IMG/VR virus record: IMGVR_UViG_2654587921_000002
Coordinates: 1-64,000 of that record
Direction: 5' to 3' (one strand)
Length of the DNA stretch: 64,000 nucleotides
DNA from: a virus
Lineage: Duplodnaviria; Caudoviricetes
The position numbers and the translations under genes were made by a program. The notes under the pieces were generated by a model. It was not told where the DNA came from. It did no database searches and saw only the letters and a list, made by a program, of their open reading frames with translations. Positions within the stretch are counted from its first letter, which is position 1; every line of letters starts with the position of its first letter. Shown piece by piece: positions 1,320 through 26,876 of this stretch.

Positions 1320-2780
1320 TTACTCAACTATTAATTCATAGTACTGATTAGGGTCATTCCTATTCAAAGCCACTCTCCGTATAAAACCTTTTGCTGCTAA
1401 CTCTTCTAACACTTTTCTACTTACATTAGTACTTCGTTCAATTATCTTTGCCAACTCTTTTGTAGTTACTTTCCCACGGCTATACATAATCTCCAATGCC
1501 TGTTTATGATGAGACGGCAGACTATTCCACTCACTGCTCACCAGAGTACCAATCCGTTCTTGCCGCCGATTCCTTCTCATAAATACATTATTCTTCAGAG
1601 TAAGCAGTACCGACTGATTATTTGGTTCATCATAAATAGGCTCATCTAAAAAGAATGACTTCATCTCCTCATAAATACGCTTAACTCCTTCACCAAGTTC
1701 TTTAACCCAACCAAACTCAGTAAGAACTCTAGCAATTCTCGGATTCCTAGAATACCTGACCTCCCGAATATTCGATGTAGTAACAATGTTAGGCAGCTTG
1801 CCAGGACTCACTATCTCCATTCTATCGTCAAACAATAGAATCTTTATATCATCGCCTTGTATGTTATAAGCTCTATGTGTAACAGCATTTACAATGCCTT
1901 CTTGCCAAGCAAACGCAGGGTACTCCGGAATAGAAACAAACTTGCCATCCAGAGGATTGAGAGCTGTAAACGTCCGCAACTGGCTTTGAACCAAACTGCG
2001 TGCGGTTTCTATCTGCTTAACCAGAGGCCCTTCAATATATTCTTGTTTAATAATATTCATGCTCGTACCGACTTCTGCTTTTCCGCCTTCATACCGGATG
2101 AAACGAATACGGGCATTCGGAAGATAGGCACTTGGATATTTAGCAAAAAGCAATACCCCAGCAATTGTAATTAACGGTCTGTCTGCACTTCGCTTTGCTA
2201 AACCTCTGGCATAAAGGATTTGTAGCAAATCGTCTCCCTGAAAATTCACTGCCTTTTTATATTCGCTCAATAATTCTTCATCCAAGTCTTCCCAGCGACA
2301 GTCCTCAATCACGTTATCTTCAAAAAGACGTTCACCTTTGTCATACTCCAAGCTTAAACGCTGTTCAAAGGAAAGCTTCTTACTCTCATCACCAACCCGC
2401 AGGAAAACTTCATCCGCGCTATTTCTATGGACCCTATCTGAGCTGGCTTCAATATGGAGGAAGAGCAACCGGTCACTATTTCCATTATTCTTAATTACAT
2501 CAACAAATTCAGGAGTATACCTAACCGAAGGAATGCATTTTTCAAAACCACACTGTATAAAATCATTAATTTTTACATTACCCTGTGCATCAATTCCTTC
2601 GATAGCTCTATCTTTAATTCCTATGGCTATCGTCCCACCATCGGCATTAGCAAACGCGATGACAGTCTCGGTTAACTTTGCTATGGATATAGAGGCGGAC
2701 TTCCTATCAAAGTATTGGCTCTCGACACCAGGGGTAAGTAGAAATTCCATAGTTAAGTTTGTATTATATTTTGACAACAT
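1320..2780 (-). CDS. AlbA_2/Schlafen-like domain + HATPase_c_4 (RecG-C-like) + C-terminal winged-HTH protein
   Basis: N-terminal ESQYFDRK..ETVIAFANADGGTIAIGIKD; central AWQEGIVNAVTHRAY..DDRMEIVSPGKLP..SRNPRIARVL..ELGEGV; HTH at the C-terminus. Start placed at ATG 2780 after GAGGTG. Confidence 0.8.
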   Translation of the reverse strand: MLSKYNTNLTMEFLLTPGVESQYFDRKSASISIAKLTETVIAFANADGGTIAIGIKDRAIEGIDAQGNVKINDFIQCGFEKCIPSVRYTPEFVDVIKNNGNSDRLLFLHIEASSDRVHRNSADEVFLRVGDESKKLSFEQRLSLEYDKGERLFEDNVIEDCRWEDLDEELLSEYKKAVNFQGDDLLQILYARGLAKRSADRPLITIAGVLLFAKYPSAYLPNARIRFIRYEGGKAEVGTSMNIIKQEYIEGPLVKQIETARSLVQSQLRTFTALNPLDGKFVSIPEYPAFAWQEGIVNAVTHRAYNIQGDDIKILLFDDRMEIVSPGKLPNIVTTSNIREVRYSRNPRIARVLTEFGWVKELGEGVKRIYEEMKSFFLDEPIYDEPNNQSVLLTLKNNVFMRRNRRQERIGTLVSSEWNSLPSHHKQALEIMYSRGKVTTKELAKIIERSTNVSRKVLEELAAKGFIRRVALNRNDPNQYYELIVE

Positions 2781-2946
2781 CCATCTCACCTCATCCTGAA
2801 TAAAGATAATCTAATTTACATTATATACCAAAAAGGTTTAATAATACAGCATACACCATCAATTAGTATAAACAATTTTAGGTACATCTAAAATCATTAT
2901 ACTATAAAAAAGGAACCACCCCAAGGAATGGCTCCATTTAGTACAA

Positions 2947-4203
2947 TTACGCAGCATCACGCCGTTCTTCCGGTATGCAGACAGAAGTCTGCACACCAAC
3001 CGAATAGCCTGTAGATGATTCACGAAAAAGACCTTCTAGTGCCTTAACTGCAGTGTCTTGCATATCTGGTAATAAGTGGCTGTATGTATCCAATGTCATC
3101 GTGACTGTACTGTGACCAAGCCGCTCCTGTACAATTTTAGGATTTATCCCTTCCAGGAGAAGCAACGTGGCATGTGTATGGCGTAAGTCGTGAAATTTGA
3201 TACTGCGGTCAATACCTGCGTCTACTAGCATTGCCTTGAAATGCCGTGTAGTAAAGTTGCTGGTATCTACCGGCCTGCCAAACATATTCGCCACCACAAA
3301 ATTATTATTTTCGTATTTATCACCAAGTTGCGCTATTTGCTCTTCCTGCCATGTTTTATAAATTCGTAATTCTTCAGTAACTTTGTCAGGTAAGGGTATC
3401 TGTCGCTTAGACTTTTGGGTTTTAGGTTCTTGCAGCCATTGTCCGGTAACAAGTTTGCGCCCGGTTATTAGTGACCGCCTGACAAAAACTACACCTCGCT
3501 CCAAATCAACACAATCCCATTGCAGACCAAATATTTCACCAAGCCTCATACCGGTTGATAGTGCCAATAATATTACGATATATGGAACTTGACCTTTTTG
3601 CTTAGCAACACAAAGTAACGCCGTCACCTGCTCTTTCGTCATAAGGCATATCTCTTTCTTGGTTAGTTTAGGCGGAATCGTATCTTTTACTACATTTCTT
3701 ATCACCAGCCCTGCCTTAACGGCTTGTTCAAGGGCCATACTTAAGTATCTTCGAGTGGCTTTAACTGTACTTGTTGAAATACCATTTCCATTCTTTCCTC
3801 CCTCATTTAATAGCTTATTTAGTAAGCGTTGGACATCCGGAGATTTCAGTTTTCCAATCTGAACATTACCTAGTTGTGGCTTCACATAACATCGCAAACA
3901 GCCTTCATACTTATCATACGATTTAACCCGAACTTTTTGTTTAACATAATCTTGTAACCAACGTTCTAGCCACTCCCAAAGTGTAGTTTTGTCGGTACCC
4001 GGCAGCAAACCACCCTCCAAATTCTCCAGCCATTGTTGACCAATTTTTAAAGATGCAGCCTTTGTCTGCGTTCCTTTGAGCTTTTTGCGTTTCGTTTCAC
4101 CAGTCATGGGGTCTTTGTAGGTAACTTTAACAAAATAACATTCTCTTTTTCTATCCCATTCCAGAGTGCCTTCCCCATGACCACGATGTGAACTATTTGC
4201 CAT
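2947..4203 (-). CDS. int: Tyrosine recombinase / site-specific integrase
   Basis: TGMRLGEIFGL, FHDLRHTHAT, RLGHSTVTMTLDTYSH catalytic motifs; N-terminal arm-binding region. RBS GGAGGG before ATG 4203. Confidence 0.95.
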   Translation of the reverse strand: MANSSHRGHGEGTLEWDRKRECYFVKVTYKDPMTGETKRKKLKGTQTKAASLKIGQQWLENLEGGLLPGTDKTTLWEWLERWLQDYVKQKVRVKSYDKYEGCLRCYVKPQLGNVQIGKLKSPDVQRLLNKLLNEGGKNGNGISTSTVKATRRYLSMALEQAVKAGLVIRNVVKDTIPPKLTKKEICLMTKEQVTALLCVAKQKGQVPYIVILLALSTGMRLGEIFGLQWDCVDLERGVVFVRRSLITGRKLVTGQWLQEPKTQKSKRQIPLPDKVTEELRIYKTWQEEQIAQLGDKYENNNFVVANMFGRPVDTSNFTTRHFKAMLVDAGIDRSIKFHDLRHTHATLLLLEGINPKIVQERLGHSTVTMTLDTYSHLLPDMQDTAVKALEGLFRESSTGYSVGVQTSVCIPEERRDAA

Positions 4204-4234
4204 GTTATTCCCTCCTATCCCAAATAATGTCTGA

Positions 4235-4432
4235 CTAAGCACCTTGTGTGCATGCCTCATTAAGCAGACTGTCAACATACCACGACGGAACAAATACTCT
4301 TTTGCCTACACGCACCGACGGAATAACGCCTTTTTTTACAGCCGCATATATCCCTGCTCGGCTCATGGGAATTGGTCCTCCATTTTTTCTTAACAGTTCC
4401 GGTAATTCGTAAAGTGTTTTGTTGATTGACAT
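4235..4432 (-). CDS. xis: Excisionase-like HTH protein
   Basis: 65 aa with MSRAGIYAAVKKGVIPSVRVGKRVFVP (HTH_17/AlpA-like), directly upstream of int. Confidence 0.75.
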   Translation of the reverse strand: MSINKTLYELPELLRKNGGPIPMSRAGIYAAVKKGVIPSVRVGKRVFVPSWYVDSLLNEACTQGA

Positions 4433-21565: not shown

Positions 21566-24500
21566 TTAATCTAGACTACCAACTTCCTGAAGTAACTTTG
21601 GAACACGAACATCCTTCTTGCGAAGCTCTGCAAGAACATCGGTTTTTTTATTTTTTGGCAACCGTTGCAAAGCCAACACGCAATCACCGATAATATTTTC
21701 TAAAGTAGTTTCGTTACTGCCTCGAACATATCTAGTGTGATAATAAAACATAAGTTTAAATAAGACAAGTTTTAATAAATCTCGATTTTTTACTTCTTCT
21801 GCAAACTTAGCAAGTTCTTGCAGAAAATTAGGCATTTTTAAATCCGCATATAAAAACACATACATAAATTTTGAAAACTCATTTGCTTCGGCATCCATAA
21901 CCTGCTTAACTGTCTTGGCAAGTTTCGCAGTACCAATACTTTCAGCAGCAATGTTTTGTACTACTATCGGGGCAGTTATGCTAAGAAGGTCATAAAGGAA
22001 TTCTATATCTTCATTACGTTCATCTCGAACTTCAGTATTAGCCCCCCTACTATGATGATGGTTAATCATTTCTATCATGGTAGCCAGAAACACTCTATAA
22101 CCTTGTATGCATTTTTTTAATGAGTTTAGTTTAGTATTTTTGTCAGCTCTTTCATTATTCTTAATAATACGCCCATACAGGTGCAATGTTTTAAAGAAAA
22201 CTCGCCCTTCAAATGGGGATGTTTCTGCCTTTATAACCTTGGGTCTTACCGCTTCCCTACCATTATCAGGTACGTCTACCAAAGAATCATGTTCTTCCTC
22301 GGAAAGTTTGTTCTCTCTTAATTCCTGTTTTAGCCCTTCTGCATCAGCTTCCATCTCTAGTCTAAGACTAAAGCTTTCGAGATTAGCAAGTAGATGTAAA
22401 TACTTTTCAACAAAAGGTTCTAACTTACCTTCTATTCTAGTTAAGATGTCTTTGCGGTTCCTTTGAATTCCCGCAATAAAACATAATTCATTGCTACATT
22501 GCAAGTAGTTTTCATCCCGAAGCATCCATTCAAGAGCCTCATTATCTACAATTGCCCTTTTAGCTAAATAATATTCAAACAAACAGTGATACCGAAAGTA
22601 GACCATTCCCTCATTCTCAGTTAGAATTTGTTTATCAAAGAAAAGCTTGCCGAATTTGCTTTCTACTAAACTCAAATCCATATCATCAAAGTATTGGGTT
22701 GCTAACTTTAAAAAATCTTCTTTAGTTATTTGGGAGTTAGGCGCGCTTACAATTTTCCATGCAATGTAAGCAAGAAAATCTTCTTTAAATGAAAAATCAT
22801 AAGTACTTCGATATGTATCATTAGGGGATAACTTTTCTAAAATTATTTCCATGAAGCGCTCCATGACTGATGCTTCGTTGACAGGAATAAAGTCTTCTTG
22901 GTAATTACTACAAATAGCAAGAATTAGTGATACATTAAAGGGCGTTCTGGGCATACCAACACATCTCAGGTACAGCATTACTCGGTCTAGCAGTTGGTCC
23001 AAATCCACGGTTCTACCATCAAACCATTTTGAAGCAATTTTTCTAATAGCATGTCGTGAAAAAGTATGCATATATATTTTTTCATATGCACATCCAAAAT
23101 CATGTAACTCATCAGCCTTTACTGTATGAAAAATGTCTTCGTTCATAGTAAAAATAAATCGGTTTGTGGGATATGTTAATGTGAATGCCCGTAAATATTC
23201 ATGTTGCTTTGGTTGGTAATAATCATAATTATCAAATTGTACTACGCATTGACCGGCATTTAGGAGTTGCTTTATCTGCTCTACCGTCAGATACTCTTCA
23301 GGCAACGTATGCTTAGAAACGAACGATTGCATACTTTTTTCAATTGGTTCAATGCCTTGAAGTCGCTTCTTCAAGTCTATAATAAACGGTATTTTTTTTC
23401 TCTCGCCAAATTCGGATAGGTATTTCAGTGTAATATAGTTAAGAATGGTGCTTTTACCGAGTTCCTTTTTTCCGAGTAGTACAAGGTTCTCATTGCCCCT
23501 TATAAGGTCGTCTATATCTACGTGCTCTTGTTGGTCTTCTTCCTCCTTCTGATATTCGGATTGCTTACTTAACGGTTGCGAAACAAAAAGTTCTTCAAAC
23601 TTTTGCGGTGCACTTTTATCAATAATATGAGTCAATAAGTCCTTATTTATTTTTTCTGTGAAACCATCCTTCAGCGGTTTAGCTACCTTATATGCGTTTT
23701 GCATTGCCGGGTTGCTACAGTTAAGTTGCCAATTATAATGACCATTAGAGCATATTCTGAGGGCTTCATCAAAGGAGTCTCGCTCATCGTAATATTCGCG
23801 AAAATATACATTTACCTCCTTTATGAATGGATTAATGGAAAGCAAAGAATAGCCATTAAAATACGAACGCCCTTGAAATATCGAACCACCACTAGAAAAA
23901 AGGGTCGATTGTTTAGGGCCGATGACCTGCTTGTCCCATGAATTATGTAAATGACCACTTAAGACAATATCAAATTTCCTTAGTGCAACTTCTACTGAAT
24001 CTTGGTCCTCATCGATTAACCAGTCTAAAGGGTGATGCATCAGGGCTATCTTAATGTTGCATGAAGAAATACTCGCATATGCACGCTCCACTTGCCTCTG
24101 CCCTATAACTAACTTTCGTTTGTCCTCTGCTCCCTTACCAGCTGCCCGCCATGCTGAATCCAAACATGCAAAACCAATAGAAGTATCGCTTACTTGCTTT
24201 ATAAATGCAGCACCTAATCCTTTTGGATGCTTCCAGACAGCCTCACTTTGAAAATCTTGAAGAAATTTGTAAAAAGGAAGTATTCTCGCATTGTGTGTGT
24301 CTTTTAATTCACTATCAATAAAAGTATTTATTGCGTCCTTTGATTTCAGTTTCGTAAGTAAACCGGCCTCTATAACAGCATCAATAGCAGTTGTATCAAC
24401 ATCATGATTACCAGGTACAATTAAAAAATGTGACGCGTCTAAATCGGTTATCTTTAAAATTGGGGTAATAAAACTATCCATTGCCATTTCCAATTGGTTT

Positions 24501-24688
24501 TCACCTTGCCAAGCGTGTTGTCCCTGGGCAATGAGGTCTCCCGTAAAGCACACAAAATTAACTTTTCCCTTATCTTTAATAAAAGTTGCAATATCGTCTT
24601 TTAAGGCATTAACTACTTTTTGCACATCAAATTCGCGTTTCTTGCATATATGTAGGTCAGACAGATGTAATATGTTTATTTGTTCCGT
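21566..24688 (-). CDS. Calcineurin-like metallophosphoesterase fused to STAND/NACHT-type NTPase (candidate anti-phage NLR-like protein)
   Basis: LHLSDLH (upstream of GTG 24625), FTGDL, VPGNHD, ALMHHP, LSGHLH; Walker A GKKELGKST; Walker B VVQFDNYD; long helical C-terminus. RBS GGGGGA lies 6 nt before ACG at 24688. Confidence 0.85.
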   Translation of the reverse strand, partial: TEQINILHLSDLHICKKREFDVQKVVNALKDDIATFIKDKGKVNFVCFTGDLIAQGQHAWQGENQLEMAMDSFITPILKITDLDASHFLIVPGNHDVDTTAIDAVIEAGLLTKLKSKDAINTFIDSELKDTHNARILPFYKFLQDFQSEAVWKHPKGLGAAFIKQVSDTSIGFACLDSAWRAAGKGAEDKRKLVIGQRQVERAYASISSCNIKIALMHHPLDWLIDEDQDSVEVALRKFDIVLSGHLHNSWDKQVIGPKQSTLFSSGGSIFQGRSYFNGYSLLSINPFIKEVNVYFREYYDERDSFDEALRICSNGHYNWQLNCSNPAMQNAYKVAKPLKDGFTEKINKDLLTHIIDKSAPQKFEELFVSQPLSKQSEYQKEEEDQQEHVDIDDLIRGNENLVLLGKKELGKSTILNYITLKYLSEFGERKKIPFIIDLKKRLQGIEPIEKSMQSFVSKHTLPEEYLTVEQIKQLLNAGQCVVQFDNYDYYQPKQHEYLRAFTLTYPTNRFIFTMNEDIFHTVKADELHDFGCAYEKIYMHTFSRHAIRKIASKWFDGRTVDLDQLLDRVMLYLRCVGMPRTPFNVSLILAICSNYQEDFIPVNEASVMERFMEIILEKLSPNDTYRSTYDFSFKEDFLAYIAWKIVSAPNSQITKEDFLKLATQYFDDMDLSLVESKFGKLFFDKQILTENEGMVYFRYHCLFEYYLAKRAIVDNEALEWMLRDENYLQCSNELCFIAGIQRNRKDILTRIEGKLEPFVEKYLHLLANLESFSLRLEMEADAEGLKQELRENKLSEEEHDSLVDVPDNGREAVRPKVIKAETSPFEGRVFFKTLHLYGRIIKNNERADKNTKLNSLKKCIQGYRVFLATMIEMINHHHSRGANTEVRDERNEDIEFLYDLLSITAPIVVQNIAAESIGTAKLAKTVKQVMDAEANEFSKFMYVFLYADLKMPNFLQELAKFAEEVKNRDLLKLVLFKLMFYYHTRYVRGSNETTLENIIGDCVLALQRLPKNKKTDVLAELRKKDVRVPKLLQEVGSLD

Positions 24689-25046
24689 ATAAATTCCCCC
24701 TAGGTAATATTTGGAGGTTCAGCAATGAAAAATAAAAAAATACTGAGCATTCTTTTAAAACAAAAATCTAAAAAAGATATAATCAATGCCCTCCGAGTAC
24801 ATAGAGCAAACATGGAAAAAAATATTACGCCCTACAAAACATAGATTACTAATTGTAATATTCCATATTTTAGCACATTTTTCTTGAAATATCTACATTA
24901 TCCGAGACCAAAACGCAATCTTTCATACACCAGCAATTACATTTTCATATTTTCTTTGCCTATTTTGTAAACTTTATTATGTCAGTCTAATGCTGATATA
25001 TATTTTTATAAACAAATTAGGGCCCAGTTTACACTAGGCCCAAAAA

Positions 25047-26561
25047 TTACGCAGCATCGGGTGATTCATCCCCGGCATCGCCGGTATCCTTGGTTGTACG
25101 ACTATCTTCAACAATCTGCCCACCCTCAGATTGTGCTTCTCCGGGGATAGCGGTGATAACATCGCTAGTGTTAATGCGTTTTAATTCTATGACAGTTTTG
25201 TTCTTATTTGTATTGGTGCCAAATGTACATTCGACATTCTTGGCGCGAAGATTGCTGGTTATTTCTCTAATATGCCTTGACACTGCATTCGGCATCTTAG
25301 GAAAACTATAAGTAGGGTTTTGTTCCCTAAGTTTAGTTAATAACTCCGTAGTATAGCCGTTCCAGCTACCCTCCTGTTCAACAAGTCTAACAATAGCGTC
25401 AGCAACTGGGTCGCTAGCTACAACTTCATCATTTACCATAGAGATATTGCTGCTATATGCGTCTAGAAAGGTTTTACCGCCAATACCTGCCGCCTCTGCG
25501 ATAGCATAACCCCATTTAGCAAAATCAGCCATTCGAGGCAGTTTTTCTATTTGAAGGTCAGTTGTCATCAAACATTTGGCTTCCACTAACACATCAAATA
25601 TAGCGCCTAATATGAAAGGCTGCTTTTCTTTAAAAGATTTCCAGAAAGTTTCCTCTGTCTGGCGTTGTTCTTCTCCTATCCGCATTACTTCAAACAGCAA
25701 CATCCTGTCCAGTAAGTCTGACCGCCTAGCCGCTAGATTAACGCCGTTAAGGGTAATACACGACTTAACCGAAATGATGATATCCTCCGTGTCAGTATAT
25801 AGCTTCCGTTTATGTACCGCCCCGCCTGTTACAGCGCAACATAGCAAATCTGACACACTAGGGGATAACGTACTAAGGTTATCGAATGCAGGCATATAAT
25901 TGTGCGCTATTAATTGAGCCAGTTCATTCTGACTTCGCGGCAACACCATAAGTTCGTGCTTCGCCGGGTCAACCAGTTTTCGCAATAGCCTTAGTGCTGT
26001 GCTTTTTGCTGCCCCTTTTTCACCATAAAAATTAGGGATAGGGTGCGCTATATCCGGTACAAAACAGGTGACTAAGTATACCATAAACAGTATTTTATCC
26101 TTATCATTCATCAAGTTAATAAACTCTAATACATCTTTCAGCTTCACACCATCATTTCGCTGCGGAGCTATTTGTTCTCTCTTATTTTTGTGACATTTAA
26201 AATAAACTGGCGGGCTGCTGATTACCTCCCAGCTATCTCTTCCAACTTTTACGGCAGACTCGCCAAGGTCATAATAGAAGTCTTGGTCTTCTTTTGCAAC
26301 TCTTAAGTGTAACCGACGCTCACTGGTATTCTGCCTAGCTAATACCTCAATATGATGGATATAGTCCTTAAGCTGCTGTCTCTTGGGCATCTTGCCAAGT
26401 TGGTTTTTGTGCTCCCAGTAGAGCATATCCTCAATGGATTGGTCATTAGGTGGGTAGACTTTTTGCCCATTAGCTACGTAGATTTCTCCTTCAGATGATT
26501 TTAGTAGGGTTAGACTCTTATCTTGGATAAGACGTTCGATATCAATAATGTTGTAGACCAT
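25047..26561 (-). CDS. Second replication-type P-loop protein (SF3/primase-associated helicase-like)
   Basis: FYYDLG, NFYGEKGAAKST, AFDNLSTL..SDLLCCAVTGG..RKLYT, NG..RRSDLLDR. Confidence 0.6.
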   Translation of the reverse strand: MVYNIIDIERLIQDKSLTLLKSSEGEIYVANGQKVYPPNDQSIEDMLYWEHKNQLGKMPKRQQLKDYIHHIEVLARQNTSERRLHLRVAKEDQDFYYDLGESAVKVGRDSWEVISSPPVYFKCHKNKREQIAPQRNDGVKLKDVLEFINLMNDKDKILFMVYLVTCFVPDIAHPIPNFYGEKGAAKSTALRLLRKLVDPAKHELMVLPRSQNELAQLIAHNYMPAFDNLSTLSPSVSDLLCCAVTGGAVHKRKLYTDTEDIIISVKSCITLNGVNLAARRSDLLDRMLLFEVMRIGEEQRQTEETFWKSFKEKQPFILGAIFDVLVEAKCLMTTDLQIEKLPRMADFAKWGYAIAEAAGIGGKTFLDAYSSNISMVNDEVVASDPVADAIVRLVEQEGSWNGYTTELLTKLREQNPTYSFPKMPNAVSRHIREITSNLRAKNVECTFGTNTNKNKTVIELKRINTSDVITAIPGEAQSEGGQIVEDSRTTKDTGDAGDESPDAA

Positions 26562-26829: not shown

Positions 26830-26876
26830 CTGGAGCGGGCAACGAGATTCGAACTCGCGACCCACGGCTTGGGAAT
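26830..26876 (-). repeat. att site: second 3' half of tRNA-Gly(CCC), junction of element and prophage
   Basis: 47/47 identical to 572-618; not continued by the 5' half of a tRNA. Confidence 0.92.

Follow-up and report, generated by a model that had tools for sequence, protein, structure and literature searches.

A metallophosphatase-STAND defense gene probably almost turned off by a one-letter change at its start codon

Closest described systems

The anti-phage system DS-8, which was discovered with DefensePredictor, consists of one protein that combines an SMPDL3A-like metallophosphatase with a NACHT module; it protects Escherichia coli from phages, and this protection is lost upon mutation of catalytic residues in the metallophosphatase or of a NACHT ATPase residue (PMC13092281). 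Here we describe a distant relative of DS-8, encoded on the minus strand of a 64,000-nucleotide (nt) stretch of DNA (IMG/VR virus record IMGVR_UViG_2654587921_000002, positions 1 to 64,000; hereafter the window), whose coding frame is intact over 1040 codons and whose start codon reads ACG (24688-24686). We infer, with a probability of roughly 60%, that a real ATG-to-ACG transition has lowered translation at least a hundredfold, to about 1% of the AUG level or less. In essence, a one-letter change has probably almost turned off a defense gene. By sequence comparison, the protein itself is a new, distant member of a known, catalogued family that has an experimentally validated member, and the start codon alone is unusual; the locus is a modest curiosity and no new kind of system.

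The likeness to DS-8 extends from end to end. Like DS-8, the window protein is a single polypeptide in which an SMPDL3A-like metallophosphatase stands at the N-terminus and is combined with a NACHT-type NTPase, and the NCBIfam hidden Markov model (HMM) DS8_antiphage (NF053861) aligns with residues 8-983 over profile positions 1-974 of 994 (205.5 bits, E 1.1e-60). The window protein also has the catalytic and P-loop residues on which DS-8 depends, and SMPDL3A is itself among the structural matches (Z about 20). However, the HMM score falls far below the equivalog cut-off of 790, and the window protein is therefore a distant homolog and not a DS-8 ortholog; host and carrying element are also different, as is the ACG start.

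The family to which the protein belongs is the metallophosphoesterase-STAND family PDC-S60/nSTAND4 (PF24406). The PADLOC PDC-S60 profile is matched over its full length (residues 4-1008 against profile positions 1-1003 of 1027; 372 bits, E 1.8e-111), and here too a single gene stands without a conserved neighbor: none of five neighboring genes recurs in 35 homologous loci. The window protein differs from the family in being 42% identical to its nearest member and in having no canonical start codon. A literature search returned no paper mentioning PDC-S60.

A first-pass annotation of this DNA had proposed a phosphoesterase-STAND (NLR-like) defense candidate and had likened it to Avs and bNACHT proteins. 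The candidate itself is upheld as a single gene, with matches from Pfam, PADLOC, NCBIfam and Foldseek to support it. The resemblance to Avs and bNACHT proteins is one of layout, an effector followed by a STAND NTPase and a helical sensor, with an NTPase that is structurally similar to those of NLRC4, NOD2, NLRP3 and Avs4. Membership in those groups, in contrast, finds no backing from HMMs: no Avs or bNACHT profile in PADLOC matches at E up to 10, Pfam NACHT gives no match at E 0.01 or below, and the C-terminal domain is short, at about 310 residues, with generic HEAT-like matches.

A further relative is known by its fold. The Bacillus subtilis YydB model 9a6c_B is the best structural match to the effector (Z 32.6, root-mean-square deviation 2.6, 304 residues); no other metallophosphatase exceeds Z 22. 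YydB, however, is a separate 481-residue protein modeled together with YydD, has no STAND fusion and shares 18% identity with the effector, and 9a6c_B is an integrative model and not an experimental structure. A literature search returned nothing informative on YydB/YydD function.

For the start codon, the described parallels are infC, which begins with AUU or AUA, and three Staphylococcus aureus genes, cvfC1 (AUU), ccpN and citZ (both AUA) (PMC13009471). As in those genes, a near-cognate codon stands behind a well-placed Shine-Dalgarno (SD) sequence at the present locus, and attenuation is to be expected. The AUU or AUA codons of those genes are conserved among relatives, whereas the ACG described here is shared with no relative.

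A frame without a canonical start codon

The anatomy of the gene can be read directly. The features on which the argument turns are as follows.

21566-24688, minus strand: full-length metallophosphatase-STAND coding frame from ACG, 1040 codons plus TAA (open translation; PDC-S60 and DS8_antiphage matches)
24686-24688, minus strand: ACG at the family start position (N-terminal alignment; offset in homologous loci and proteins)
24696-24700, minus strand: Shine-Dalgarno-like GGGGG, 7 nt upstream of ACG (spacing counts genome-wide)
24692-24694, minus strand: in-frame ATT, the start in one public annotation (1042 residues), 1 nt after GGGGG
24677-24679, minus strand: in-frame ATA at residue 4, near-cognate, upstream of strand β1 and 16 nt after GGGGG; the PDC-S60 alignment begins here
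24623-24664, minus strand: downstream annotated starts CTG 24664 (1032 residues) and GTG 24625 (1019 residues), both without SD and both removing β1

The frame is open from 24718 to 21566. It is closed on its 5' side by a TGA at 24721-24719, which the first-pass annotation had placed near 24720, and is ended by a TAA at 21568-21566. The earliest ATG, GTG or TTG in frame is GTG 24625, from which the product would measure 1019 residues. As that annotation had recognized, the first metal-binding motif, LHLSDLH, is encoded in frame but 5' of this GTG (24670-24650, within a wider I-N-I-L-H-L-S-D-L-H at 24679-24650), and a GGGGGA tract (24700-24695) lies 6 nt before ACG 24688. Translation from the ACG gives T/M-EQINILHLSDLH, and the further observation that the remaining catalytic and P-loop motifs are intact over more than 1000 codons is also correct, all of them being present in an open frame of 1040 codons.

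Three public annotations exist for the gene, and each chooses a different start, at ATT 24694, CTG 24664 or GTG 24625. None of the three uses ACG 24688, the homologous start position; two remove conserved N-terminal residues, and one of those two loses the first catalytic motif.

The start position in homologs

The threonine encoded by ACG aligns with the initiator methionine of the closest homologs, which begin M-x-x-[IL]-x-I-L-H-L-S-D (alignment with 21 homologs). The start-codon comparison that had been proposed at first could be made with homologs of which the nearest is just 42% identical. On genome contigs, 14 of the 24 homologous loci that carry the motif have ATG, GTG or TTG exactly five codons before I-L-H, after a GGAGG-like tract, which is the offset of the ACG; in the remaining loci the start is shifted one codon upstream or one to three downstream and is again always ATG, GTG or TTG. 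The five-codon offset is also the modal one among homologous proteins (56 of 112), while an offset of 7, the position of the ATT, is found in two of the 112, one being this gene's own annotation. A frameshift from an upstream ATG was considered and is ruled out, since the homologs begin exactly at the position of the ACG. Conservation of a noncanonical codon, as known for infC, is not seen in the family: all 24 loci use ATG, GTG or TTG, one further locus uses CTG, and none shares ACG.

Two loci that look like exceptions are gene-caller artifacts, L036 reading AAAGGAGG followed by ATG and L039 reading GGGGGGAGG followed by TTG. At L036 (positions 3962-4001; JGI Ga0153798_10000707), the public call for protein P0003 at an internal ATG drops the first 13 residues, DxH included, and a normal AAAGGAGG-N6-ATG lies upstream. 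The one real exception is L037, where CTG occupies the family start position, 6 nt after GAGGTG. For this homolog (P0072; Logan contig SRR19226398_3310, positions 373-420) the gene caller chose a downstream TTG, and an Abi_2 gene and a transposase fragment adjoin. Elsewhere in the family, P0085 (L038:660-3761; ENA k99_56937) is without the first ~30 residues, motif I included, and has an in-frame stop four codons upstream of its called GTG. P0089 and P0091 are likewise without these ~30 residues and motif I, and all three, which lie beside an Mrr-type restriction gene, are truncated or remodeled family members.

The position of the motif ahead of the GTG is no coincidence. H8, S10, D11 and H13 do not vary among 45 aligned sequences, and GTG 24625 lies downstream of all four; residues 4-9 form strand β1, the first core strand, in an AlphaFold model with a mean predicted local distance difference test score (pLDDT) of 84. 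Starts at CTG 24664 and at GTG 24625 both delete β1 together with the invariant H8, and the GTG start deletes S10, D11 and H13 as well. Given this invariance and the place of residues 4-9 in β1, the effector domain would be damaged from either start.

Close relatives of the gene are scarce. Fifteen other species of the genus have no ortholog (best match 25% identical), a collection of 5.8 billion proteins holds no sequence above 42% identity, whether full-length or fragment, and an exact-sequence look-up found no further contig carrying the gene, which is present in one assembly only.

Ribosome-binding site and ACG use in the genome

The genome comprises a 4.96-Mb chromosome at 47% G+C and a 59-kb second contig, with 12 rRNA operons and a canonical anti-SD sequence, CACCUCCUUUCUA. 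Across it, counts of GGAGG and of GGGGG are highest 7 nt before ATG (278 and 89 cases, over a baseline of about 15-25). ACG 24688 sits 7 nt after GGGGG, and thus at the modal SD spacing, so that a strong and well-spaced SD of the kind known from infC is in place. A spacing of 1 nt, as for ATT 24694, shows baseline counts and no enrichment in the genome. With so short a distance to the SD, the ATT is improbable as a start, and no purine-rich tract occurs 5-10 nt upstream of it. The first-pass annotation had suggested initiation at ACG or ATT; the ACG has gained from the comparison, as the family start position behind a well-spaced SD, and the ATT has lost. Neither CTG 24664 nor GTG 24625 is preceded by an SD.

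Use of ACG as a habit of this genome can be ruled out. No genome-wide peak at SD spacing is seen for ACG, ATT or CTG, and a strict scan of the genome for ACG (SD, upstream stop, no canonical start nearby, open reading frame of at least 150 codons) returned 3 SD-led candidates, against 1-8 for control codons. Of the two candidates other than the present gene, one is a gene that starts at an internal ATG and the other a noncoding frame.

What an ACG can yield has been measured elsewhere. In E. coli, noncanonical codons initiate at 0.01-3% of AUG, with AUA, AUC, AUU and CUG forming the better class, and protein made from an ACG construct began with Met, at a rate near the bottom of that range (10.1101/063800); near-cognate initiation of the kind required here is, in E. 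coli, about 0.01-1% of AUG. An AmpR gene with an SD plus ACG conferred resistance only after transcription was raised about 50-fold (PMC2715043). More generous values come from S. aureus, where genes that naturally begin with AUU or AUA after an extended SD reach roughly 10% of the AUG level (PMC13009471).

These elements suggest a simple course of events. The ribosome-binding site is intact, and the ACG at the family start is one T-to-C transition away from ATG. Because the start codon reads ACG, the full-length protein is possible by near-cognate initiation only, at the ACG or perhaps at the ATT or ATA, and the gene would in effect carry a start-codon knock-down. With the rest of the gene undecayed, the change may be recent, or a trace level of protein may be tolerated. 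As to function, we infer by analogy with DS-8 and with Avs and NLR proteins that the C-terminal domain, if the protein is made, would bind a phage-derived trigger, that the NTPase would then drive oligomerization and activate the metallophosphatase, and that the latter would hydrolyze a phosphodiester substrate (nucleotide, cofactor or DNA), such that infection is aborted.

Effector, NTPase and C-terminal domain

From the ACG, the coding frame specifies three domains.

23717-24685, minus strand: metallophosphatase (calcineurin-like) effector domain, residues 2-324 (Pfam Metallophos 1.3e-11; five metal-binding motifs; structural matches)
22499-23551, minus strand: NACHT-like STAND NTPase module, residues ~380-730 (Walker A 23447-23473; nSTAND4 Pfam match 22565-22732)
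21569-22498, minus strand: C-terminal all-helical repeat domain, residues 731-1040, presumed sensor (AlphaFold models)

The defense gene shows no sign of decay. Of 105 columns with a conservation of 80% or more among 44 homologs, it retains 98; this places it 21st of 45, and its replacements are for the most part conservative. In the effector, Pfam Metallophos (PF00149) matches residues 5-249 with 45.8 bits against a cut-off of 21.5, and a PADLOC 'Effector/Endonuclease' profile matches residues 7-322. All five metal-binding motifs are present and invariant in 45 sequences: D11/H13, G50-D51, G93-N94-H95-D96, H218-H219 and G245-H246-x-H248 (GHLH). The β-sandwich fold of metallophosphoesterases is likewise present, with a strand at residues 4-9 that leads into DxH (pLDDT about 90) and known metallophosphatases matching at Z 20-33. 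Below YydB these include Lmo2642, purple acid phosphatases, Rv0805 and SMPDL3A, at Z about 20-22; Mre11/SbcD follow at Z 17-18.6.

The NTPase module carries a Walker A motif, GKKELGKS, at residues 406-413 and a Walker B-like FDN at 485-487, and nSTAND_NTPase4 (PF24406) matches residues 653-708 with 48.6 bits against a cut-off of 27. Foldseek places it with NLRC4, NOD2 and NLRP3 (E about 1e-8) and with Avs4 (8dgf, 2.5e-6). The C-terminal 310 residues, folded alone (pLDDT 79), match generic HEAT/ARM-like chains only, at Z 8.6 or lower, and for this reason no sensor family can be named for the domain.

More than 100 homologs of about 1040 residues have the same architecture. In shorter homologs the effector domain occurs alone or fused to TIR, SEFIR, AAA_16 or NB-ARC modules; in P0153, P0167, P0179, P0212 and P0235, for example, the partner of the metallophosphatase domain is a response-regulator receiver, SEFIR plus TIR, TIR, or NB-ARC/AAA_16. 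Given such varied fusions, the metallophosphatase behaves as a shuffled, modular defense effector.

Weighing the explanations

Several points weigh against a mutational knock-down of the gene. With no homolog closer than 42% identity in the collections searched, the ancestral codon is deduced from distant relatives only, and the CTG of L037 hints, at the level of sequence, at a possible recurrence of weak starts in the family. The initiation efficiencies used above were measured in E. coli and not in the organism of the window. Continued selection, in which case the weak start would be functional, accounts equally well for a frame that stays open over 1040 codons at 36% G+C and retains all key residues. 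Finally, the base at 24687, genome position C1:4816862, comes from the assembly consensus alone, which makes an assembly error a candidate explanation, if an improbable one. In that event the C would stem from faulty base calling or assembly, and the codon would in truth be ATG: a single substitution restores a perfect start, M-EQINILHLSDLH, and one assembly only carries the gene. Yet that assembly resolves the micro-heterogeneity of 12 rRNA operons with almost no singletons, and nothing else in the gene is broken. Among the 12 copies of the 16S gene, about 17 internal columns vary; the patterns are shared between copies and partly compensatory, a singleton occurs once, and on these grounds the consensus looks clean. 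Long-read errors are mostly indels and not isolated transitions, which also counts against an error here. As an observation in its own right, the 16S copies of genome C1 fall into sequence variants, some of them with compensatory pairs, and represent real intragenomic heterogeneity.

The strongest challenge comes from selection. The ACG, possibly together with ATT 24694 and ATA 24679, could be a weak start under selection, keeping the amount of an NLR-like sensor to a trace; a reason might be, for instance, that the sensor's trigger is encoded by the tandem prophage. The intact SD and spacing, the undecayed frame and the three in-frame near-cognate codons between the SD and strand β1 all fit this idea, as do the CTG behind an SD in L037, the lowering of expression to about 10% by noncanonical starts behind strong SDs in S. 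aureus (PMC13009471), and a prophage in tandem at the same tRNA. We nonetheless consider it unlikely, for conservation of the ACG is seen in no relative, all 24 homologous loci having ATG, GTG or TTG, the genome has no excess of ACG starts, and the natural noncanonical bacterial starts in the cited papers are AUU, AUA, AUC and CUG, not ACG. DS-8, moreover, gave defense when cloned and expressed in E. coli (PMC13092281), and a need for extreme attenuation is therefore not apparent; the toxicity of the protein, of which the first-pass annotation had spoken, is an assumption. The stricter proposition, that ACG 24688 is a genuine, selected natural bacterial start with the sensor at trace level and a tandem prophage able to supply the trigger, is rather unlikely. 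Translation from ATT 24694, giving 1042 residues at AUU-type efficiency, has in its favor that ATT is accepted in table 11, that it beats ACG in E. coli (0.1-3% of AUG), that it lies upstream of all conserved residues and that one public annotation chose it; set against its baseline spacing of 1 nt after GGGGG, with no alternative purine-rich tract 5-10 nt upstream, and against homologs that do not begin there (offset 7 in two of 112 proteins, this gene's own annotation being one), it is decidedly improbable. Least credible of all is a shorter functional protein from CTG 24664 or GTG 24625. Two public annotations use these starts and the CTG would retain D11 and H13, but β1 and H8 are lost in both, S10, D11 and H13 are also lost with the GTG, and neither has an SD.

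Whichever explanation prevails, the locus illustrates clearly how start-codon loss misleads gene finders, and, for an immune sensor of the DS-8 type that adjoins a prophage, it allows ATG and ACG to be compared in a natural setting. Should the ACG allele still protect, a trace of a STAND sensor would suffice and ACG could serve as a bacterial start. Should it fail to protect, the gene would be one more defense gene recently switched off on a mobile element, which is common and expected. If a selected ACG were true, start-codon strength would emerge as a tuning knob for autoimmunity in defense borne by mobile elements.

Leader sequence

Two further features lie between the coding frame and the gene upstream.

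24700-24813, minus strand: small upstream open reading frame, 37 codons from ATG 24813 or 16 from ATG 24750; its TAG stop overlaps the SD, and it has no SD of its own
24867-25041, minus strand: terminator-like hairpin of the upstream gene (25041-25020), then promoter-like hexamers at 24926-24897 and 24895-24867, the latter with TG (consensus scan only)

Coupling to the small upstream frame that ends on the SD was considered and set aside as speculative; the frame is without an SD. The promoter-like sites score barely above shuffled expectation, and no Rfam family matched anywhere in the window. A CCUCC/GGGGG hairpin that would hide the SD (CCTCC 24717-24713) is predicted, but its fold is no better than that of shuffled sequences (z -0.95), and it was rejected as well.

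Mobile-element context

The surroundings of the gene are also a matter of direct observation. The 3' 46 nt of a tRNA-Gly(CCC) are present three times: in the intact tRNA at 84332-84406 (numbered as in the window but outside it; genome C1:4876507-4876581), at 26830-26876 and at 572-618. These three copies delimit two elements integrated in tandem.

619-26829, unstranded: 26.2-kb integrative element carrying the defense gene, bounded by the 46-nt tRNA-Gly(CCC) copies at 572-618 and 26830-26876
26877-64000, unstranded: left part of a ~57-kb myovirus-type prophage that runs to 84331, with terminase, portal, head, sheath and tape-measure genes

The first-pass annotation had spoken of a co-resident prophage. 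A prophage is indeed present, but the defense gene is cargo of the separate 26-kb tandem element and not a chromosomal neighbor of the prophage. The two elements have their own integrases, at 2947-4293 in the 26.2-kb element and at 82880-84202 in the prophage (26877-84331), and these are 26% identical. Megablast of the prophage against phage records gave no match.

Besides its integrase, the 26.2-kb element encodes a DUF927 primase-helicase, RadC, MoxR/vWA, PD-(D/E)XK, AAA_24, ankyrin and zinc-ribbon proteins and a helicase-like gene of 504 codons; no virion genes were found in it, and it could be a satellite-like or mobilizable island. The 504-residue protein (25047-26561, minus strand) has no Pfam, PHROG or NCBIfam match. 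In the ESM-Atlas its structural neighbors, with template modeling (TM) scores of 0.8-0.87, come from the helicase part of primase-helicases of the Toprim or Prim-Pol kind (DUF5906-like), and judged by these predicted structures it is probably the replication helicase of the 26-kb element. At the other end, a Schlafen/AlbA_2 plus HATPase_c_4 gene (1320-2789, minus strand) lies between the integrase and the outer attachment-site copy, a typical position for cargo.

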